DNA from: a virus
Lineage: Duplodnaviria; Heunggongvirae; Uroviricota; Caudoviricetes
Length of the DNA stretch: 37,772 nucleotides
Reading direction: 5' to 3' (one strand)
Virus record (IMG/VR): IMGVR_UViG_2690316076_000005
Location: 1 to 37,772 of that record
Below, piece after piece: positions 1-37,772 of this stretch (its first letter is position 1; every line of letters starts with the position of its first letter). The notes under the pieces are model-generated. The model ran no database searches. It had not been told where the DNA came from and worked only from the letters and a program-made list of their open reading frames with translations. Position numbers and translations under genes: made by a program.

Positions 1-20
1 CACTGTTTATCCATACAGTT
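1..20 (+). promoter_or_regulatory. LexA (SOS) box 1 upstream of dinI-like gene
   Basis: cactgtttatccatacagtt carries CTGT-N8-ACAG at 3-18, matching the LexA box core. Confidence 0.55.
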
Positions 21-28
21 AAAAATAA

Positions 29-48
29 TACTGTATACAAACACAGTA
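29..48 (+). promoter_or_regulatory. LexA (SOS) box 2, near-consensus
   Basis: tactgtatacaaacacagta versus consensus TACTGTATATATATACAGTA; lies 13 nt upstream of the ATG and just before the SD gaggg (51-55). Confidence 0.75.
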
Positions 49-61
49 TAGAGGGACTTTT

Positions 62-310
62 ATGCGTATTGAAATCTGCATAGCCAAAGAAAAAATGACT
101 AAAATGCCAACCGGTGCTGTGGATGCGTTAAAGGAAGAATTAACCCGACGCATCAGTAAACGTTATGACGATGTAGAGGTGATCGTAAAAGCCACCAGCA
201 ACGATGGCCTTTCTGTTACACGCACCGCAGATAAGGATTCTGCAAAAACTTTTGTTCAGGAGACTCTGAAAGATACCTGGGAATCTGCTGACGAGTGGTT
301 TGTTCACTAA
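62..310 (+). CDS. dinI: DinI-family SOS-inducible protein homolog
   Basis: 82 aa; MRIE...IAK N-terminus and C-terminal [17 protein letters not shown] closely match E. coli DinI (ETWESADDWFV); ATG with SD; two LexA boxes upstream. Confidence 0.85.
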
Positions 311-453
311 TTAACACGTAAAATCGGTAACGGCTGGAAATCATTCAATAATCGCACTATCGAAAGTTCGCCAGCCAGCCGCAGCACGTTCTTGCATACG
401 ACGTGGCTGCGGCTTCCAACATTAGACAAATAACTCTTTAAATTGCTTTTAAA

Positions 454-639
454 TTATTTCGTTTGAATGCCAGTAACAGGAAATCGTTTATATAGGGTTG
501 ATAGCCCAACGTTATAGATACGTGCAACATAACGCCGTGATTTCCCTGCCGCTATGAGCGCTCCCATCTGTTGCCACTGCTCGTCGCTAAACTTCGGTCT
601 ACGCCCACCAATCCGGCCTTTGGATCTGGCAATAGCCAA
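454..639 (-). pseudogene. C-terminal remnant of a Gin/Pin/Hin-family DNA invertase (HTH domain only)
   Basis: GRIGGRRPKF...IYNVGLSTLYKRFP matches the C-terminal DNA-binding domain of serine invertases; the track M is a TTG codon, so this is an internal segment; the catalytic N-terminal domain is absent and the fragment abuts the tfa stop. Confidence 0.6.
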
Positions 640-644
640 ACCAG

Positions 645-1013
645 CTAAAGTTCCGGGATGACAGGCCAGTTAACATGCTCAGGGTCGGTTGTTACATCAA
701 CAGCCTTAACCTGATTCTTATATAAAAGCCACGCCGAAAGTTTAGCTCTGTTGGCATCGCTGATTTCACCCAGCATCAGCTCTGTGCGCCAGTCGAGCAT
801 AATTGCATCAGCGGCGGACAGTAATCGCTGTCGCTCATTTTCAGCAGCCTGGATGAGTTGTTCATGAGTCGGTGGGGGATTAATAATTGCCATAGCCTCA
901 CTTCTGGTGATTGGCACAAGCCCTTCTTTGATAAAAGCATCCTGTGTGCCATACGCATCGTAGGCATATACGACGTTATTTTCATCTTTGTAATACTTCA
1001 TCATTGTTATCAT
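645..1013 (-). CDS. tail fiber assembly protein (Tfa)
   Basis: 122 aa; [19 protein letters not shown]... is the typical Tfa N-terminus; directly follows the fiber gene with a 4-nt overlap. Confidence 0.75.
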
Positions 1014-1990
1014 TTTTTATCCACCTCTACCCAGGTAACATCTGACACTGTTCCTGAAAACTGCTGCACAATATAGGTCGCACCGGCAGGAACCATGAAT
1101 GCGATAGTTGCTCTTTGCCCTGCAAGATTTGTTGTCTGAGAGCCGCGAAAATTAGCCGAATTACCATCCACATTAACGTTGGCGCTCAGAAATGAACTAC
1201 CGTCAGACAGCACCGCATTGACGCTTACAAATATGGCGAAAGACTGGCTGTTGGTGTATACGACACCGAGATTTCTAGATTTCATTCCGCATTGACCAAA
1301 CAACCCTTTCATATCTGAATAGTTTTGTGATGCAGCAAGTGATGATGCAGCAACACCAGATTCCGTCGATGTTCTGGAATCAGATACGCGGATAATTCCC
1401 TTGTTTGTTGGGGTCGCATCATTGGTCTTGCCTTGCAACGCCTGTATATCCGCATAATTCATCGCTGCCGCTTTTGCTGTTGCAGCAAGCGTTTCAGATT
1501 CGGATACCCTTGATGATGTAAGTTGAACAATTCCTTTCTGTGTCGTAGTTGAATCCTGAGTTTTGTTTTGCAAAGATTTTATGTCCGTATAGTTTTGCGC
1601 GACAGCATTAGCTGTGGCTGCAATATCCTCTGCACCCGATACCCGCGATGACGTTAACCGGACTAAACCCACCTGTGTTGTTGATGCGTTTTTAATACCA
1701 AGGTTTTCGAGAGCCGTTTGCACAGTGCCATCCGATTTGATATCGCCAAACGGATTCTTGCGGCTTAACAGCAGAGCACGAAGTGCGGTAAGCAGCTGGT
1801 CATGCCGCCCTTTCTCCAGGCTGGCACCGGAGGCCTCCACCACGCTACAAAGTTCTTCCTGCAACATGTCAAAGTAGTCATCATCCAGATCGGTGGCAGG
1901 TGTGCCGGTCTGGGGGTTACCACGGGTAAAACCGTTCTTACCCGCGCCGAACTTATCCTTCTGCGCGGTTTTCGTGTCTATACGATGCAT
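1010..1990 (-). CDS. tail fiber protein
   Basis: 326 aa; conserved fiber N-terminal motif [12 protein letters not shown]; internal tandem repeats; position between the gp48-like gene and tfa. Confidence 0.75.
1304..1675 (-). repeat. three tandem ~45-aa (~135-bp) repeat units inside the tail-fiber gene
   Basis: Protein residues 106-229 contain three copies of G(L/I)V(R/Q)LTSSRVS..AATA.A.A.NY.DI..LQ.KT, as in phage tail-fibre repeats. Confidence 0.6.
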
Positions 1991-1993
1991 GGA

Positions 1994-2578
1994 TTACTCC
2001 GGATATTTAAAAATTACGTAGGTATGCGAAGGGCAGAGTTTGTTAAGCACGCACTCGACAACGGTGTCGCCCCAGATACGCAGTGCGGAATCACAGGGAT
2101 CGCCACATGTCATCCAGGTGGTGTTGGTGGCGGCTGGTATGTTGACCTGCCAGTAATACCGCCATTCCGGCGCATTCACCGCGTCAGTACAGGCCGATGA
2201 GCAGGTGAACGTGCTTTTATCGTATCGCGTGATAGTGGCGTCTGGTCTGCCCAGGGCAGCAAGCTGTGCAAGGTAAAAATCCTCATTGATGCCGCCCGCC
2301 AGATTAACCTTCGCATCCAGCCGTTGCTGACGCTGGCGAAGGGTCTGCGTTCCCGCCGGAATACATTCATCCGGCAGGCCGCACAGACGCTCCCAGCGGT
2401 TTATCAGTTCAGTGGTGGTGCGCGGATCCAGCTCCTGCATCAGGGCATCCGCACGCTGATGAACGCGGGTTAATGACGGTGCCGCACCGGCAATCGCCGG
2501 ATCGCTGGCTGACCACGCCGGACCGGGGGGCAACAGTGCCGACAACAGACGGATGTAATCATCGTTTGTCACGTCCAT
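1994..2578 (-). CDS. Mu gp48-like tail protein (DUF2313 / YmfQ-like)
   Basis: 194 aa; N-terminus [17 protein letters not shown] typical of this family; synteny between baseplate J and the fiber. Confidence 0.65.
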
Positions 2579-3627
2579 GAAATCGTCCCCAGTACCGCCA
2601 GTTCATTTTTTGCAATGGAGATATTGTCTGCAGGTGCAAGCAACTGATGGCTGTATTCCCCGTTCGCACCGGAAATCGCTTCACTGATACGCGACACCTT
2701 CAGTTCTCCCTGCGGATAACCATCACGCAGCAGGAACGAACGCAACTCGGCGGTGATGGCAGCCCGTATTTCTGGTGTATCCGGCGTCACACGGATATGA
2801 AAATCCACCGTATGCGCCACCGGCCTGAACACATACAAATCAGAGCCTGCCACCGGGGCCAGTGGCTCGATATGCAGCCTTGCCGCCGTTTCCGTTGATT
2901 CTTCCGGAATGGGATTAATCAGGTCGCTGCTGGCAATCATCACACCGACAGTCCCCGTTCCCATCCAGTGTCGGTATGTCCATGCGCGGGTAATGCCGGG
3001 CACTTCTTTAGCCCAGACGACATAGTCCCCGTCAGCCCCGCCCTGAGGCGTCCAGTAATACCGCTCAATGACGCGGGCGCGCCACGTTTCCAGCTCTTCA
3101 GTATCAAATCCACCTGTCAGGGTATCTGCCACGCCGGAAGACGGCAGACCATTCACCGGCGTGACCAGGATTAATGACGTACCGTCGTCAGCGTTACCGA
3201 CCGCGCCTGCACTTGAGCAGGCGATCGGCACGCGCAGGACACCACCGGAGCTGGTTGCATCGGCAGTTGCCGTGTACTGCACCAGGTCATCGCGCTGAAT
3301 AACACTCCCGGCGGTCACCTTCAGGCCATCGCTGACACCTTCCCAGCGCATATACCCGCTGGCAGCCGTGGCCCCCTTGCGCGGACATCGTTTCATCGCA
3401 GCATGTCGCGCCAGCCAGGACTCATCGCACAAGTCAGGCAGCATGTTCATTGCCAGATAATCGATGTACCCGTAAACCGTATGCAGCGCCGCCGCATACA
3501 CCTTTGCCCGCACGTCTTCATCCATGCGCCGGAGCGTGTCGCTGACGTCCAGCCTGGCGAATAAATCGTTACGGAGCATACTGATATTTTCTGCCAGCGT
3601 CGGGCGCTGAAATTCACTGTCCGCCAT
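2569..3627 (-). CDS. baseplate J-like protein (Mu gp47 family)
   Basis: 352 aa; size, composition and position in the Mu-like baseplate block. Confidence 0.8.
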
Positions 3628-7081: not shown

Positions 7082-7576
7082 CTATCTGAGTTGAACATCA
7101 ATGGAATAAATATCACCACTCTTTATAAATTTAGAATCTGTCCTTTCATCAAAAGATTCAAATGACTGTACCTTTAAAAACTTTTTCATTTTATTTTCAA
7201 AAATACTTTCATTAACACCAGTTAAATATTTGAACGCTCTACCAGCAAGGACCTCATTACTTAAATCCATTGTGTTTTTATTGTCTTTGAAAAACCAAAC
7301 AATAACCTTTTGTGGGCATGATGGATTATAAACAGATATATAAAACTGCGGCTCATATTTTTCATCAGCGTCATCACTAAGCATTTCTTCAGAAGATAAT
7401 TCTCTTCTGAATTCATATTGCCGCTTAGTTATTCCTTCATCCTTTATTATCTCTTGCTTAACTGGTGCAATACCTATAGAAGAGATTAATTCTGACTCAT
7501 TAAAGCTGAACTTACACTCTTCCGCAGCCAAGTTAAAAGATAAAAGTGCAGATATAAAAAAAACAAAGATACGCAT
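7082..7576 (-). CDS. AT-rich moron: predicted secreted protein of unknown function
   Basis: Start placed at the third ATG (SD gaaggg); MRIFVFFISALLSFNLAAEECK looks like a signal peptide; strongly AT-rich codons versus the flanking tail genes; sits between the N-like gene and the tape measure gene; a perfect TATAAT -10 lies on the minus strand at about 7607-7612. Confidence 0.6.
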   Translation of the reverse strand: MRIFVFFISALLSFNLAAEECKFSFNESELISSIGIAPVKQEIIKDEGITKRQYEFRRELSSEEMLSDDADEKYEPQFYISVYNPSCPQKVIVWFFKDNKNTMDLSNEVLAGRAFKYLTGVNESIFENKMKKFLKVQSFESFDERTDSKFIKSGDIYSIDVQLR

Positions 7577-7675
7577 AATCATCCCTTCAATCATTTGTAA
7601 GGAATGATTATATTAACTACTTAAAGCTGAAAACCCAAATTATGCCAGACAAAAACACATTAATCATTTTGTACA

Positions 7676-9508
7676 CTACCTGAACCGCGTATAGCCAACA
7701 TCATGGCTGACATCAAAACCGCTGGATCGCGTTTCCATAACCCGCATACCCGGAGGCGAATTCACAAAAGATACCTTGATCTCACCATCAACTTTTGGCA
7801 CAGAAGCTTTGTTAATCATGAAGGGATTCGAGCCTGTGGCATCGGAGGCGTTGTTTGACTGAGCCGGATCCACCGCCGGATAAGGTGTGTATCCCCGCGC
7901 CGGTATTCCCGTCCCATAAGCATCATAAGCACCCGCGCCCCACTGCGCAGAGTTAATGGCATCGACCGTGTCACCGGAACTGTCGGTAAACCACTCAATA
8001 ATTGGCTTCAGCTTGTCCCACATATCCTGAAACCACTTAACAACCGGTCCCCAGTTATTGATCACCATCCCCAGCGGCGACCAGGCAAAAACCTTCTTCA
8101 GAAGTTCCCAACCTGCCTCAAAATAAGGACCAATGGTTTCCCAGAGCTTCTTGAAATAAGGTCCGACAACATCCCAGTTAGTGATAATTAATCCCGCAGC
8201 CAGAGCAATCGCCGTCGCAATCATGCCAATCGGCGTCATCGACATAATCCTGCTGACAATACTGATGGCACTGCCCACGCCCATCAATCCCAGTTTCAGA
8301 ATCGCAAGACCGGCAGCAAGCCCGACGACGCCGCGAATAACCCGGGGATTTTCATCCGCAAACTTCGTGAATTTCTCCCCCAACTCCCCCAGCCATTGTG
8401 TGATATTTTTAGCGTCACCAGAAAATGCGCCGCCAATAGCCGCAAGGCCGTTAGTTGCGGTCCCTGTCATTGCCTCCCACAGGTTGGACAGCGTACCAAG
8501 CTGTGCCTGAACACGTTTATTCAGGCTGGCCTGTTTATTCATCTTCTGCTGGATCTGATCGTAGCCATCCTTTCCTTTATCGATTAGTGCATTGACCACC
8601 TGAAGGGTTTCGGCATCATCACCAAATATTGCCTTAAGTACACCTGTTCGCTTAACGTCGGTCAGTTTTCGCAGCTTTGCCAGTTGCCTGAACATGTTAT
8701 CAAGACCGCCAAAACTTCCTTTGCCGTCAGTAAAATCGAGCTGTACCCCGAGTTTCTGGCGGGCCATAACTTTATTAACGTCCCTGATTTTCTTAACGCT
8801 TAATCCGGACTGGATAACTTTTCGCAGGGCATTACCTGCCGACTCCCCGTTCATCCCCATCTGATCCATCATGACGCTGATGGGGGCAAGGCTCTGTGCA
8901 GCCTGAAGACCATCCTTGTTCACCATCTTCAGAACAGAACTGGTTTTAGTGAAGAAGGACAACATGTTGGTATCGTCAACGCCCAGATAAAACGCCTTCT
9001 GGATAGTGTCGAACAGCCCCATCATGTCTTCTGACGCCGTTCCGGTAGCATCCTGCATCTTTGCAGCAAACTCAGCAGCCGCTTCCGGTGTTTTTTTCAG
9101 TTGTACCGCAAGATAAGCTGTCGCTTTACCCACACCACCCAGAATGTTTTCTGCCGGGATCCCCTGACGCACCAGCATCTGCATCATGTTCTGGAAATCA
9201 GCCGTTGTACCAGGTAGCTGGTTACCCAGGCCAATAGCCAGTTTATTGATGTCCTGAAAGCGCTTTCCAACCTCGCCGTTCGCATCCATCATGGCGACTT
9301 TCAGCCCGGTGGCGGCGTTTTCCTGATCGGCATAAGATTTCAGGGAAAGCGTCAGACCCGCTGCCAGTCCGCCCCCAAGCGCCAGCCCACCCTGTGACGC
9401 TTCTTCCGCCTGGCGTTTAAATCCCCGGATTTTCTTTTGCATTTTCGACAGCGCGGGAGAAAGCCTGTCGACACCGGTGATCAACGCCTTAAGCTCAAAT
9501 TCAGCCAT
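7676..9508 (-). CDS. tail tape measure protein
   Basis: 610 aa; Ala/Gly-rich with a hydrophobic segment; downstream of the chaperone pair. Confidence 0.85.
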   Translation of the reverse strand: MAEFELKALITGVDRLSPALSKMQKKIRGFKRQAEEASQGGLALGGGLAAGLTLSLKSYADQENAATGLKVAMMDANGEVGKRFQDINKLAIGLGNQLPGTTADFQNMMQMLVRQGIPAENILGGVGKATAYLAVQLKKTPEAAAEFAAKMQDATGTASEDMMGLFDTIQKAFYLGVDDTNMLSFFTKTSSVLKMVNKDGLQAAQSLAPISVMMDQMGMNGESAGNALRKVIQSGLSVKKIRDVNKVMARQKLGVQLDFTDGKGSFGGLDNMFRQLAKLRKLTDVKRTGVLKAIFGDDAETLQVVNALIDKGKDGYDQIQQKMNKQASLNKRVQAQLGTLSNLWEAMTGTATNGLAAIGGAFSGDAKNITQWLGELGEKFTKFADENPRVIRGVVGLAAGLAILKLGLMGVGSAISIVSRIMSMTPIGMIATAIALAAGLIITNWDVVGPYFKKLWETIGPYFEAGWELLKKVFAWSPLGMVINNWGPVVKWFQDMWDKLKPIIEWFTDSSGDTVDAINSAQWGAGAYDAYGTGIPARGYTPYPAVDPAQSNNASDATGSNPFMINKASVPKVDGEIKVSFVNSPPGMRVMETRSSGFDVSHDVGYTRFR

Positions 9509-33650: not shown

Positions 33651-34366
33651 GCAAGATTGATTATCAGGCACTGCGTGAAAAGGCAGAGAAAGCAACTAAA
33701 GGAAGCTACATCGTAGGGCATACATCTGTTAACCAGCACGGCAATTTAACAGGAGTTTTTGTTTGTCAAAAATGGAAAGGAGAACCCGGTGGTGTGATTG
33801 CGGAATGTCATGTTAACTGCCTGGTTGAAACAGATATTCAGGCTTATGCAAACGCTGAATTTATTGCTGCCTTTAATCCAAAGGTTGCTTTGGCACTACT
33901 GGATGAACGGGAAAGAAACCAGCAGTACATCAAACGCCGCGACCAGGAGAACGAGGATATTGCGCTAACGGTAGGGAAGCTGCGCGTTGAGCTTGAGGAA
34001 GCAAAATCAAAACTCAACGAGCAACGCGAGTATTACGAAGGTGTTATCTCGGATGGGGGTAAGCGTATTGCTGAACTGGAAAAACAATGCGCCGAATGGG
34101 AGCGAAAAGCATTAAGCAACTTTGAAGAGTGTGCTGCGATGGCTGAACGTATCGAAGAGATGAGTAAGCAAAGTTGCGAAGCCCGGGAGCGTGATTTATT
34201 TGAATCATGGGTAATGCATTCAATTTGTATTTCCAAATCGACGCTTGAAGGATTGCGCACCGAAACTGGATACCGTAATGCGACCTTATCAGGAACAGAC
34301 TTCAACCGCATGTGGGAACAATGGAAATCTATCCGCGCCGCAGGAATTCGCAAAAGGGAGATTTAA
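33647..34366 (+). CDS. Ea22-like coiled-coil early protein
   Basis: 239 aa; N-terminus MSKIDYQALREKAEKA and coiled-coil middle typical of Ead/Ea22-like prophage proteins. Confidence 0.5.
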   Translation: MSKIDYQALREKAEKATKGSYIVGHTSVNQHGNLTGVFVCQKWKGEPGGVIAECHVNCLVETDIQAYANAEFIAAFNPKVALALLDERERNQQYIKRRDQENEDIALTVGKLRVELEEAKSKLNEQREYYEGVISDGGKRIAELEKQCAEWERKALSNFEECAAMAERIEEMSKQSCEARERDLFESWVMHSICISKSTLEGLRTETGYRNATLSGTDFNRMWEQWKSIRAAGIRKREI

Positions 34367-34397
34367 TAATCATGATGTACCGTAAAGAGGAAGCCAA

Positions 34398-34889
34398 ATG
34401 ACAGCACTCAACAAACAGGTGCTGCTGAGCACCGATAAACACGCAAATCAGCACCGACTTTCTCGCCTTACCATGGAAGTGCATAGCGATGAGCTTCGTA
34501 TTATAGCGTCAGCAGTAGAGAGCTATACCGACGAGTTGATAGCAGCGCTGGAAGCCGCAGAGAAGCGCAACGCAAAATTACAAAGCGAGAATGCATACAT
34601 CCGAAACCGGTTCAAAGAACTGGACCTGTTAATCGGGAAAAACATTCTGGTCATGCAGGCTGCGATTATCGAATGGCAGGCAACTGGCGACGCTAAAAGC
34701 GGACTGGCATGGATTTATAACACACTGTTTGGCCCTGGCGAATTGCCGGACGAATCTGAGAAAGATGCTCAGGCCTACTTTAATCGCAAATATGCACCGA
34801 TTGACGAAAAGCTTATGGCGCTTCACAAGTGGTTTTGGGAACAAAGTGAAGCCGAGCGCGCCGCTGGCATTCGCATAAAAGGAGAGTGA
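34398..34889 (+). CDS. Ea22-like / hypothetical coiled-coil protein
   Basis: 163 aa; N-terminus MTALNKQ; C-terminal AAGIRIKGE resembles the AAGIRKREI end of the previous gene. Confidence 0.45.
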   Translation: MTALNKQVLLSTDKHANQHRLSRLTMEVHSDELRIIASAVESYTDELIAALEAAEKRNAKLQSENAYIRNRFKELDLLIGKNILVMQAAIIEWQATGDAKSGLAWIYNTLFGPGELPDESEKDAQAYFNRKYAPIDEKLMALHKWFWEQSEAERAAGIRIKGE

Positions 34890-34890
34890 T

Positions 34891-35082
34891 ATGAACGGAC
34901 AAATCTCAATTGTTCGACCGGGAGCATGTGACGATCGCGAGATACGAATGATTATTCGTCTGGCGATGGGGAAAACAATAACAGCTCTCATTACTCCAGA
35001 AAATCTCGCATTAGCTTTAACCGGAAAGTCAGACCTGCCAGTAGAGCTAAAGCTGCGAAATGTTGAGATTAAGGTGAAATAG
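34891..35082 (+). CDS. hypothetical small protein
   Basis: 63 aa, tightly packed in the operon. Confidence 0.4.
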   Translation: MNGQISIVRPGACDDREIRMIIRLAMGKTITALITPENLALALTGKSDLPVELKLRNVEIKVK

Positions 35083-35084
35083 CT

Positions 35085-35633
35085 ATGACCACTATTACCA
35101 AAGAACGTATCGAATTATTCATTAAAAATCCGCTTGAAAACGGGCTTACTCGTGGCGAACAAATGGAACTGGCACGAATTGCACTGGCATCACTGGGAGC
35201 AGAACCTGTAAGCCAAACTTACAACTTGCCAGAATTAATCGAAGGCATGGAGGTTTCCATTGATGTAAGCACTTGTGATGCGGATTTAGGTAATCGCTAT
35301 TTCGGTACCGTCACCGAGGCGTTAGAACTTGATACTGCCAAGAATGGTTACATCCTCCTAGTTCAGGACGCAGAGCCAAACTTCGATGTAAATGGCAACT
35401 CTCCGGGAACTCCGGATAGTTGGATAAGCTGTAGTGATCGAATGCCTGAAAAGGGCCAGAACGTGCTTATTTCGGTGAATTTCGATAGCTCTCAGGTTGA
35501 ACCGCTAATATGCTCCGCACGCTATACCGGAAGCACCTTTCGGCGCGGAGATGCAACGATTAAGCCGGGTAATGGTATTGAGCAAGCAACTCACTGGATG
35601 CCGCTACCGGAACCGCCGCTGGAGGTGAAGTGA
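35085..35633 (+). CDS. DUF551-domain protein
   Basis: C-terminal THWMPLPEPP motif typical of DUF551. Confidence 0.6.
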   Translation: MTTITKERIELFIKNPLENGLTRGEQMELARIALASLGAEPVSQTYNLPELIEGMEVSIDVSTCDADLGNRYFGTVTEALELDTAKNGYILLVQDAEPNFDVNGNSPGTPDSWISCSDRMPEKGQNVLISVNFDSSQVEPLICSARYTGSTFRRGDATIKPGNGIEQATHWMPLPEPPLEVK

Positions 35634-36205
35634 TGAACAACTTAATGATCGACCTTGAGACGATGGGGAAAAATAAGGATGCACCGATCGTTTCCATTGG
35701 CGCGGTGTTCTTCACTCCAGAAATCGGAGACATCGGACAAGAATTCTATACGGTTGTTAGCCTGGAAAGTGCTATGGAGCAAGGAGCTACACCTGACGGC
35801 GATACCATCCTGTGGTGGTTGAAACAAAGCCCTGAAGCACGAGCTGCAATCTGTATTGATGATACTTTGTCGATCAGCGATGCTCTCTCAGAACTAAATC
35901 ATTTCATTAACCGGCACGCAGACAATACGAAATATTTAAAAGTCTGGGGTAACGGAGCCACCTTCGACAACGTAATTTTACGTGGAGCTTATGAGCGAGC
36001 AGGACAAATCTGCCCGTGGGCATACTGGAATGACCACGATGTACGCACGATCGTTACGCTTGGGCGTTCCATCGGATTCGACCCCAAAATGGACATGCCT
36101 TTCGATGGCGAACGGCACAACGCCCTGGCTGATGCCCGTCATCAGGCAAAATATGTTTCCGCTATCTGGCAGAAATTAATTCCTGCCACCAGCACAGAAT
36201 TATGA
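35630..36205 (+). CDS. 3-prime to 5-prime exonuclease (DEDDh-like)
   Basis: MIDLETMG (Asp/Glu motif I) and HNALADARH (motif III) typical of DnaQ-like prophage exonucleases. Confidence 0.75.
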   Translation: MMNNLMIDLETMGKNKDAPIVSIGAVFFTPEIGDIGQEFYTVVSLESAMEQGATPDGDTILWWLKQSPEARAAICIDDTLSISDALSELNHFINRHADNTKYLKVWGNGATFDNVILRGAYERAGQICPWAYWNDHDVRTIVTLGRSIGFDPKMDMPFDGERHNALADARHQAKYVSAIWQKLIPATSTEL

Positions 36206-36241
36206 TTTTCCCGGGTGCAGCCGGTTTTGATGGAGAAAATT

Positions 36242-36523
36242 ATGAACACCTTGTTTTTACTGATGGCTGAATTCAATACCCCAAACATTGAACTCTCAGC
36301 AGTTAGCCAAAAGTACTTTGGTATGAGTCCAGCCACGGCAGAAGCAAAAGCAAACGCTTGTAAGTTGCCCGTTCCAACATATCGCATCGGCACATCACAA
36401 AAAGCAAAACGTTGCATCAATATTCAGGATCTTGCGGAATACATAGACAAAAGGCGAGAAGAAGGACGTATCGAGTGGGAACAGGTCAGAACAGTCAAAC
36501 AGAAGGGCAAAGAAAATCACTAA
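36242..36523 (+). CDS. PrtN-like / excisionase-like small DNA-binding protein
   Basis: Start at the ATG with SD ggaga; MNTLFLLMAEFNTPNIELSAVSQKYFGM resembles the PrtN family; last gene of the early-left operon. Confidence 0.5.
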   Translation: MNTLFLLMAEFNTPNIELSAVSQKYFGMSPATAEAKANACKLPVPTYRIGTSQKAKRCINIQDLAEYIDKRREEGRIEWEQVRTVKQKGKENH

Positions 36524-36529
36524 AGAAAA

Positions 36530-36549
36530 AACCCGCCTGAAGGCGGGTT
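36530..36549. terminator. bidirectional intrinsic terminator
   Basis: AACCCGCC-TGAA-GGCGGGTT flanked by an A-run and a T-run, between convergent genes. Confidence 0.75.
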
Positions 36550-36570
36550 TTCAAAAAGCACCAGCTATGA

Positions 36571-36744
36571 TCATGCTGCTTTGAGACGACGAAGCTTACC
36601 CTGCTGCTCTTTACCAGAGACAGTAGCGTGAGTGAACGCATTAGGAGCAGCCTTCATCAGAACTTCAACAGCAGCACCCATACCTACGAATGCTTTCATT
36701 GTGTCGAACTTAACCTGTGGCTTGGTTGCTTTTTGATCTTCCAT
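36571..36744 (-). CDS. small 57-aa ORF, missing from the ORF track
   Basis: Own translation: MEDQKATKPQVKFDTMKAFVGMGAAVEVLMKAAPNAFTHATVSGKEQQGKLRRLKAA; ATG with SD ggag; lies between the candidate toxin gene and the terminator. Confidence 0.35.
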   Translation of the reverse strand: MEDQKATKPQVKFDTMKAFVGMGAAVEVLMKAAPNAFTHATVSGKEQQGKLRRLKAA

Positions 36745-36783
36745 AGAAAACTCCAGAAGTTATACCGAAACAATTCCTGTTGT

Positions 36784-37203
36784 TTACTCATCATCAATAG
36801 ATGATACGCAATATTTATTTTTAAATTTAAGGTTCTTTGGCGTAACTTCATCAGAGATATCAAAACCGTCCAGAATTCTATTGAATGTAGCTTCTGGCAT
36901 ATCATCATGAACAGAAATCTCACCCGATCGCAGCTTTCTAACCATGTTATCCACTCGCCAAATTATAGCTTCAGCGTAAACAACATAACTTGGATGCTTG
37001 ATAAAGCGATGATCACCAGAATTCAAGACGCAAGACGGATCGTGGGGGACACCATCCTTGATACTAGAAATATTAACAACTAAAACACAATAACAATCGT
37101 TAACGGGGTAATAAACAGGATCATTACAAATCACATGAAGATGATTGCATGGTCCAGTTGGGGCAAGCACAGTTCCTTTCCTGTATGGCTGATAATCCGT
37201 CAT
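36784..37203 (-). CDS. unrecognised 139-aa Cys/His-rich protein, candidate toxin/effector partner
   Basis: ATG overlaps the stop of the Panacea-like gene (ATGA); AT-rich; C19/H21/H23/C26/C37/C39 cluster; no motif recognised. Confidence 0.5.
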   Translation of the reverse strand: MTDYQPYRKGTVLAPTGPCNHLHVICNDPVYYPVNDCYCVLVVNISSIKDGVPHDPSCVLNSGDHRFIKHPSYVVYAEAIIWRVDNMVRKLRSGEISVHDDMPEATFNRILDGFDISDEVTPKNLKFKNKYCVSSIDDE

Positions 37204-37772
37204 GATAATTGCAAAGAAAATTCCTTAAGTTTCTGAGATTCTTCCATTTTGCCAATTATGCGATTAGCCTCATCCTCGCTTTTACCCTCACTGATCAGCA
37301 TTTCTTTCAGGTCTATAGGCTTACGAGAATTGCCAGGATCGTGCCACTCTGGACAAACGCTTTCTAAATGCGTCATATTTGCGAGATCAAATCGGTTCAT
37401 ATGCCCATACCGAGAATAGATTTCATCTAAAATCCGGATATCTGCACGACTCAATTCATCAAAGACCTCGTCTGCATCCATTTCCCTCGGATCTGAACGC
37501 AACGATACATTATGCCCGTTCGTCTCTATCAAGTTGTACCAGTAGTCACCAATGCCTTCAGCCTTACCGCGAATCAAGTTCAGCGTATTCGACATGACTG
37601 GTCCAAATTTCATAGAGTAAAGGCTATCTTCGCCGATCATCCTGCCATGCTTCAAAATCGACTGGCGGTTAGACAGATAGAGCAGCTTCATCAATTTCAG
37701 ATATGCCATGCGCCCACCTCTCTTAAGAAGTAGGTATGCAGCCATTTGAGCTACTTTTTCTTCGCAAAACAT
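37200..37772 (-). CDS. Panacea-domain (DUF4065, SocA-like) protein, candidate antitoxin
   Basis: YLKLMKLLYLSNR...SLYSMKFGPV resembles the DUF4065 core (KLQKLLY...W.YGPV); ATG is the last codon of the window, so the 5-prime end may be truncated. Confidence 0.6.
   Translation of the reverse strand: MFCEEKVAQMAAYLLLKRGGRMAYLKLMKLLYLSNRQSILKHGRMIGEDSLYSMKFGPVMSNTLNLIRGKAEGIGDYWYNLIETNGHNVSLRSDPREMDADEVFDELSRADIRILDEIYSRYGHMNRFDLANMTHLESVCPEWHDPGNSRKPIDLKEMLISEGKSEDEANRIIGKMEESQKLKEFSLQLS

Follow-up and report, generated by a model that had tools for sequence, protein, structure and literature searches.

A probable PanA/PanT toxin-antitoxin module carried as exchangeable cargo by a dusA-integrating lambdoid prophage

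Introduction

What is the function of a cluster of small genes found at one extreme end of a tailed-phage sequence, in which a Panacea-like gene overlaps a gene whose product could not be placed in any family by inspection? The stretch of DNA in question, called the window throughout, comprises positions 1 to 37,772 (37,772 nucleotides [nt]) of IMG/VR virus record IMGVR_UViG_2690316076_000005, a member of the class Caudoviricetes, and ends in three minus-strand open reading frames (ORFs) encoding proteins of 190, 139, and 57 amino acids (aa). We refer to these genes as panA, panT, and orf57 and to the group as the cassette. A first-pass annotation, made from the nucleotide sequence alone, had described them as a separate, AT-rich operon in which a Panacea-like antitoxin neutralizes a candidate new toxin or abortive-infection effector, with the 57-aa protein as a possible third component. 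Our check of the ORFs in the window recovered the same three reading frames. The reading that we favor, and consider quite likely, is that panA and panT form a two-gene type II PanA/PanT toxin-antitoxin module, carried as exchangeable cargo at the attachment site (att)-proximal end of a dusA-integrating lambdoid prophage. Rather than being new, the toxin falls into a published family, of which it is an unannotated member and which has one validated representative.

Results

The 190-aa protein carries a Panacea domain

A Pfam search with the 190-aa protein returned SocA_Panacea (PF13274) at 70.9 bits against a gathering cutoff of 25.7 (E 2.2e-19, residues 27 to 137), bearing out the Panacea identity proposed from the sequence; RefSeq likewise names it "Panacea domain-containing protein." The protein has no extra N-terminal domain, and beyond the Panacea domain it ends in a variable tail of about 50 aa (residues 138 to 190). 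Together with the PanA partners of the toxin homologs described below, it forms one coherent subfamily (27 to 86% identity) with the N-terminal motif MF.E.KVAQMAAYLL. Assignment as a SocA equivalog was rejected, with NCBIfam model NF047745 scoring 14.4 bits against a cutoff of 190. In a protein-cluster lookup, the 139-aa toxin and the 190-aa PanA fell into one 90% cluster along with fragments of 53 to 232 aa, which looks like a clustering artifact rather than biology.

The 139-aa protein has a predicted MazF-like toxin fold

The 139-aa protein matched no model in Pfam, NCBIfam, or PADLOC. Single-sequence and profile searches of these collections and of PDB sequences gave ICMT, DapC, and MS2 coat protein matches at chance level, which were discarded. 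The protein belongs to phrog_19071, a group whose function is not known, RefSeq labels its gene product "hypothetical protein," and none of the 62 clusters of homologs found in Enterobacterales, Vibrio, and Shewanella carries a functional name. The family is large: a profile search of 1.84 billion representative sequences recovered 2,717 clusters (50% identity) at an E value of 0.001 or below, 936 of them at 1e-10 or below.

Structure prediction followed by a Foldseek search, which the first-pass annotation had proposed for this protein, pointed to the MazF/Kid/CcdB toxin fold. The AlphaFold2 model, built with 49 homologs, was confident (pLDDT 92.3, pTM 0.86). Against the PDB, MazF structures made up the first 28 matches (E about 1e-3 and upward; probability 0.97 to 1.00; TM score 0.50 normalized by the query and up to 0.64 by the target), and in the BFVD, PemK-like proteins and an endoribonuclease ranked at the top. 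With both structure databases in agreement, the assignment of the model to the MazF/CcdB SH3-like barrel fold is solid. Conservation was assessed in 123 representatives that are 24 to 43% identical to the window PanT. In this set, conservation reaches at least 92% at each of H21, L22, D55, C58, G63, H65, F67, S72, Y76, G113, and S117. In the model, H21 opens strand 2 and S/T47 closes strand 3, and from this strand register the two positions would correspond roughly to those of R29 and T52 in MazF. A zinc knuckle of the form HxHxxC (H21, H23, and C26) was considered and dropped as a family feature, H23 and C26 being invariant only in the close subfamily.

The translation start of panT differs between annotations. 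RefSeq and PGAP record a 128-aa protein (WP_014640052.1) that begins at GTG codon 12, as in E. coli O103 strain RM8385 (positions 2755 to 3141 of our locus L035). This start appears to be 11 codons too late, since M1, P6, G10, and T11 are conserved in the family, the longer frame preserves an ATGA overlap with panA, and the resulting spacing is among the commonest (-4 or -1) in the rows seen of the published toxin cluster described below. The 128-aa call drops 11 conserved N-terminal residues along with the ATGA coupling, and the 139-aa product is consequently recorded for few contigs only.

PanT homologs are listed in published toxin cluster T6

Kurata et al. 2022 (PNAS; PMC8832971) surveyed the genes next to Panacea genes and clustered the putative toxins. 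In the accessible text of their Dataset S1, cluster T6 is described, on the basis of HHpred, as "EndoA/PemK/MazF-family RNAses" and is mentioned 87 times. All 38 of the T6 rows seen there are antitoxin-first (A|T), with overlaps of -4 or -1 the commonest. Two close homologs of the window PanT appear in that part of the listing as T6 members: P0126 (WP_101821906.1, from Yersiniaceae bacterium 2016Iso4; 57% identity, E 6.5e-59) and P0173 (WP_025672779.1, from Salinivibrio socompensis; 49% identity, E 3e-46). The same rows include a Proteus vulgaris pair as well as Pantoea septica LMG 5345 and Gluconacetobacter diazotrophicus PA1 5, two genomes in which we also found PanT loci. E. coli has two entries in the accessible text, in T1 and T3, and none there in T6.

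One member of T6 has been tested, the PanT of Pseudomonas moraviensis LMG 24280 (WP_083201923.1), whose antitoxin is WP_083354365.1. It is toxic in E. coli, is neutralized by and copurifies with its PanA, specifically blocks incorporation of [35S]methionine, i.e., protein synthesis, and was reported to match EndoA/PemK/MazF in HHpred (PMC8832971). Its corrected PanA N terminus, MIFSEQKVAQ, matches the subfamily motif and is comparable to MFCEEKVAQ in the window protein, while the ends of its PanT, read from the cloning primers (MPGNIL...IRQNNF), include a C terminus that resembles those of the family. WP_083201923.1 was not among the 377 proteins fetched. Judged by sequence relationships, then, the window PanT is a T6 member by way of its T6-listed homologs rather than through an alignment to the tested protein. 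The two pairs have in common the T6 cluster, a standalone Panacea antitoxin ("noNTD"), an antitoxin-first order with a -1 or -4 overlap, and a toxin that domain databases do not see and that looks MazF-like by remote methods only. They differ in setting: an E. coli dusA-integrating lambdoid prophage here and another genus, in a context classed as "NotPhage," there. The suggestion that the 139-aa protein is a new toxin thus held for the toxin fold and the conserved partner and failed for novelty of the family.

panA and panT occur together in unrelated mobile elements

In each of four contig lookups, a Panacea gene lay directly upstream of the PanT homolog on the same strand, overlapping it or separated from it by a few bases. 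These contexts were a P2-like prophage of Vibrio splendidus, an integrative island of Shewanella, prophages of Proteus and Providencia, and a second E. coli lineage. A scan of GTDB genomes gave the same picture. An ORF of 169 to 253 aa, counted from the first start codon, was directly upstream of the toxin in 18 of 18 loci with enough upstream sequence, and all 10 of those that were scanned with Pfam had PF13274 in this ORF, including alpha- and betaproteobacterial loci with toxins 30 to 43% identical to the window PanT. Conserved pairing in other genomes, whose absence would have counted against the first-pass annotation by its own terms, was therefore found. Joint movement of the two genes between unrelated mobile elements is the behavior expected of a toxin-antitoxin module.

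Two of these neighborhoods deserve a brief description. In Proteus and Providencia (loci L007 to L009, positions 1 to 3000), the pair adjoins genes for a tail fiber, Abi_2, a subtilisin-like S8 peptidase, UPF0167, and an ABC/AAA-ATPase, which looks like a small defense cluster. The second E. coli lineage (loci L010 and L012, positions 1 to 3311) has a toxin 52% identical to the window PanT, and the pair is directly downstream of a gene for a 2,791-aa protein with LPD1, LPD5, MuF_C, and LPD38 domains and also near AntA/P22_AR_C and PAPS-reductase-like/DUF3440 genes.

The pair is one allele of a cargo slot in a dusA-integrating prophage

Identity over the region is 99.9% with Escherichia phage Lys8385Vzw and 99.1% with phage SKA5. 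In both phages the three cassette genes are flanked by the excisionase-like gene on one side and, about 450 bp away, by the integrase gene on the other. The window opens directly behind the integrase stop codon (dinI occupies positions 62 to 310), and its last three bases are the panA ATG, so the panA promoter region falls outside it. What separates the two ends is a stretch of about 1.55 kb present in Lys8385Vzw (positions 7373 to 8925 of locus L001), which contains int, attP, the phage-borne 5' end of dusA, and the DNA upstream of panA. Lysogens such as E. coli O103 RM8385 carry the prophage within the 5' end of dusA. The 5' part of dusA that is thereby displaced (L035, 3997 to 4101) lies about 250 bp upstream of panA on the same strand, beside zur and the host gene for a DUF2713 protein. 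This arrangement fits that of the elements with dusA-specific integrases described by Farrugia et al. 2015 (PMC4482086).

Comparison with related prophages outlined the mobile segment. Homology with phage mEp460 and with O157:H7 prophages ends at window position 36757, 13 nt upstream of the orf57 ATG, and restarts 193 bp upstream of the panA ATG (L001 position 7567). These breakpoints define an exchangeable unit of panA, panT, and 193 bp of their own upstream DNA, about 1.2 kb as a whole, with the 193 bp extending beyond the window end. In its place, mEp460 (gp23; L034, 3542 to 4075) and the two chromosomal loci opened, from O157:H7 ECP19-598 and SD134209 (L036 and L037, 3412 to 3945), carry a gene for a 177-aa hypothetical protein (WP_000956557.1) that is unrelated to panAT. 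Neither Pfam nor PADLOC had a family matching the 177-aa protein, whose gene is a candidate for a further accessory or defense function of the prophage.

Gene layout, terminator, and the 57-aa ORF

The features of this end of the window are collected in Table 1. The overlap of panA and panT that had been noted from the sequence was seen as 4 nt (...tcATGAcg...), in which the panA stop codon TGA lies inside the panT ATGA. No good Shine-Dalgarno sequence was found in the 15 nt preceding the panT ATG, and the overlap implies that translation of the two genes would be coupled. The GC content of the cassette is 41.8% (panT, 38.3%; panA, 43.1%; orf57, 47.1%), compared with 51.1% for the whole window and 46.7% for the adjoining early-left genes, placing it within the lowest 4.4% of same-sized windows. 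The cassette is only moderately AT-rich relative to its immediate neighbors; the earlier description of its GC content as much lower was right in direction and overstated in degree.

Table 1. Coordinates of features at the panAT end of the window, with the basis of each assignment
Feature	Position	Strand	Basis
panA, Panacea-domain antitoxin (putative), 190 aa	37200..37772	-	Pfam PF13274, RefSeq name, PanA subfamily
panA/panT stop/start overlap ATGA	37200..37203	-	Sequence
panT, 139 aa, predicted MazF/Kid/CcdB fold, cluster T6	36784..37203	-	Predicted fold, T6-listed homologs
Cargo segment, part within the window	36758..37772	-	Homology breakpoints versus mEp460 and O157:H7 prophages
57-aa ORF (orf57), phrog_2741	36571..36744	-	PHROG match, own GGAG Shine-Dalgarno sequence, genome counts
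Intrinsic terminator hairpin AAAACCCGCC-TTCA-GGCGGGTTTT	36527..36552	.	Called for minus strand only
PrtN-family excisionase-like gene	36215..36523	+	Pfam PF11112, E 4e-23; excisionase in mEp460 annotation

On the minus strand the cassette runs into an intrinsic terminator whose 11-bp stem contains 6 G-C pairs and closes on a 4-nt loop, with a T-rich tail behind it. The hairpin lies 4 nt past the stop codon of the convergent PrtN-type, xis-like gene, which is the final gene of the early-left operon. The first-pass annotation had called this a strong bidirectional terminator. The minus-strand half of that claim stands; the bidirectional label is only partly supported, the scan having called no terminator on the plus strand, where the stem precedes only TTTTC. 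An Rfam scan of positions 34000 to 37772 gave only subthreshold matches, among them sroH (24 bits against 80) and rnk_pseudo (30 bits against 55) around the terminator (36397 to 36608), which we treated as chance.

The 57-aa ORF matches phrog_2741, of unknown function, from end to end (E 1e-34), and is probably cotranscribed with panAT. Its distribution is wider than that of the pair. Of 5,426 complete E. coli genomes, 565 contain the stretch from the terminator through orf57 and 205 the full cassette, leaving about 360 genomes, and phage mEp460, that have the ORF without the full cassette. In phage mEp460, as in O157:H7 and other strains, orf57 is followed by the 177-aa gene instead of panAT. 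The loci from Vibrio, Shewanella, Proteus, and the second E. coli lineage lack a comparable small ORF after panT. By these sequence comparisons, the ORF is part of the prophage-family backbone and not a PanAT component, and the proposal of a third component was abandoned.

Discussion

The analyses bear directly on domain and fold, on membership of the toxin family, on conserved pairing, and on the layout of the cargo slot; toxicity, RNase chemistry, the mode of neutralization, expression in lysogens, and the biological role are inferred. If panA and panT work as a type II module, PanA would be translated first and ribosomes ending at its TGA would reinitiate at the overlapping panT ATG. PanA would then neutralize PanT by direct binding, the mode demonstrated for five PanAT pairs by Kurata et al. 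2022 (PMC8832971). Ernits et al. 2023 (PMC10440598) found that standalone Panacea antitoxins neutralize by means of the domain itself and others by means of appended elements. By analogy with the tested T6 member, PanT set free from PanA would most likely stop growth through a block of translation, with RNA cleavage as the probable means. No terminator was predicted between the displaced dusA fragment and the cassette in the lysogen, which makes read-through from the host dusA promoter into panAT possible. With 193 bp of upstream DNA carried along as part of the cargo, the cassette may also be expressible from a repressed prophage. An att-proximal cargo position combined with expression in the lysogen would fit phage exclusion or abortive infection as well as prophage retention, and one of these roles, or both, is likely.

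Several observations weigh against this interpretation. The catalytic residues of E. coli MazF are Arg29 and Thr52, and the near-invariant residues of PanT (H21, D55, C58, H65, S72, and Y76) differ from this pair, so the RNase chemistry of PanT is not established. The MazF likeness is not visible at the level of sequence: no Pfam match to PF02452 (PemK_toxin) or CcdB at an E value of 0.1 or below was obtained for any of 124 diverse family members, and a search of PDB sequences with the PanT family profile returned no MazF. Comparison of close (A1) and broad (A3) family alignments with MazF, Kid, and EndoA by hhalign gave probabilities of 0.2 to 0.3%, a weak negative in that the MazF side consisted of only three sequences, of which E. 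coli MazF alone was checked against the PDB. None of the three cassette proteins matched a PADLOC-DB v2 model at an E value of 1 or below. Within the 193 bp upstream of panA, a promoter match (TTGACC-17-TAAACT; L001 7528 to 7500) was no better than chance, and a search of that DNA in L001 for an operator-like inverted repeat gave only one 9-nt palindrome, which overlaps the candidate -35 element. The presumed toxicity of the window PanT is read across from a single relative in another genus, and the accessible part of the published survey includes PanA-adjacent candidates that were nontoxic on testing, e.g., the E. coli MOD1 T1 pair (PMC8832971).

The conserved residues could instead mean that PanT uses the MazF scaffold for other chemistry or another target, with His21, Asp55, Cys58, and His65 forming a metal site or a catalytic center of the Cys-His-Asp type. 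Conservation of H21, D55, C58, H65, S72, and Y76 at 94% or higher in the 123 representatives would be explained in this way, as would the lack of profile-level similarity to MazF, Kid, and EndoA, and no biochemical activity of T6 is reported in the literature searched. We nevertheless consider this unlikely, because the tested T6 member blocks protein synthesis specifically, as MazF does, and the proximity of H21 and S/T47 to the MazF R29 and T52 positions, suggested by secondary-structure register, would suit a variant RNase site. Taken by itself, the residue pattern is compatible with a variant RNase site and also with a different chemistry. A bolder version, in which T6 PanT is a MazF fold whose Arg/Thr site has been replaced by His21-Asp55-Cys58-His65, has an undescribed chemistry or target, and is perhaps wired to the dusA promoter as a lysogeny-specific defense, strikes us as decidedly doubtful. 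That PanT might poison gyrase in the manner of CcdB instead of inhibiting translation is highly improbable, since MazF and Kid score above CcdB and dominate both fold searches and the T6 representative inhibits incorporation of [35S]methionine and not of thymidine.

Two further explanations concern the operon rather than the toxin. The pair could be a conserved phage accessory module whose second protein is harmless, as might be suspected from the several PanA-adjacent candidates that proved nontoxic and from the "terminase" annotation that some Pasteurellaceae T6 members carry in the accessible listing (PMC8832971). Against it stand the predicted toxin fold, the antitoxin-first order with overlapping genes, the validated homologous pair, and the spread over unrelated mobile elements, and we regard it as very unlikely. 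A three-component system, with the 57-aa protein as a functional partner of PanA and PanT, could draw on the shared strand of panT and orf57, the gap of only 39 nt without an intervening terminator, and the common terminator downstream. It is hardly credible in view of the occurrence of orf57 without PanAT (in mEp460, beside the 177-aa gene), the cargo recombination boundary just upstream of its ATG, and its absence after panT in the other loci.

The two-gene toxin-antitoxin reading can also be set beside known systems. PanT has no detectable sequence or profile similarity to MazF/PemK/Kid/EndoA toxins (PF02452), is about 30 aa longer than MazF, with extra C-terminal helices, and conserves His/Asp/Cys/His/Ser/Tyr rather than Arg29/Thr52. 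Its partner is a Panacea protein rather than a MazE/PemI antitoxin of the AbrB or RHH type. The founding DUF4065/Panacea domain is that of SocA in the type VI toxin-antitoxin system SocA-SocB of Caulobacter crescentus. The antitoxin Pfam domain is common to both systems, whereas PanA falls below the SocA equivalog cutoff and its partner has the predicted MazF fold and is not SocB; moreover, the PanA proteins tested by Kurata et al. (PMC8832971) bind their toxins directly and do not act as ClpXP adaptors. As a location, the slot resembles the cargo ("moron") slots of temperate phages near int and att in its AT-richer content, position at the element edge, own terminator, and alternative alleles. 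Insertion into the 5' end of dusA is the same as in the elements of Farrugia et al. 2015 (PMC4482086), with nothing unusual about it. Relative to known cargo slots, this prophage is specific only in the orientation of the displaced host dusA 5' end, which points into the cassette.

The general understanding of PanAT systems is unchanged by these findings. What they provide is a name and a testable function for a gene that phages Lys8385Vzw and SKA5 and 205 of 5,426 complete E. coli genomes carry. They also map a two-allele cargo slot in lambdoid prophages that integrate into dusA, those of O157:H7 among them, and this slot is an obvious starting point in the search for prophage defense genes. 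T6 toxins number in the thousands, with one validated representative, and go unrecognized by automated annotation because Pfam, NCBIfam, and PADLOC still lack a model for them. The remaining interest lies in the chemistry of this large toxin family and in the cargo slot.

Among the neighboring genes, the early-left operon also encodes, at positions 35630 to 36205 on the plus strand, a 191-aa protein with an Rv2179c-like 3'-5' exoribonuclease domain (PF16473, E 1e-74), which databases label an exonuclease or exodeoxyribonuclease VIII.

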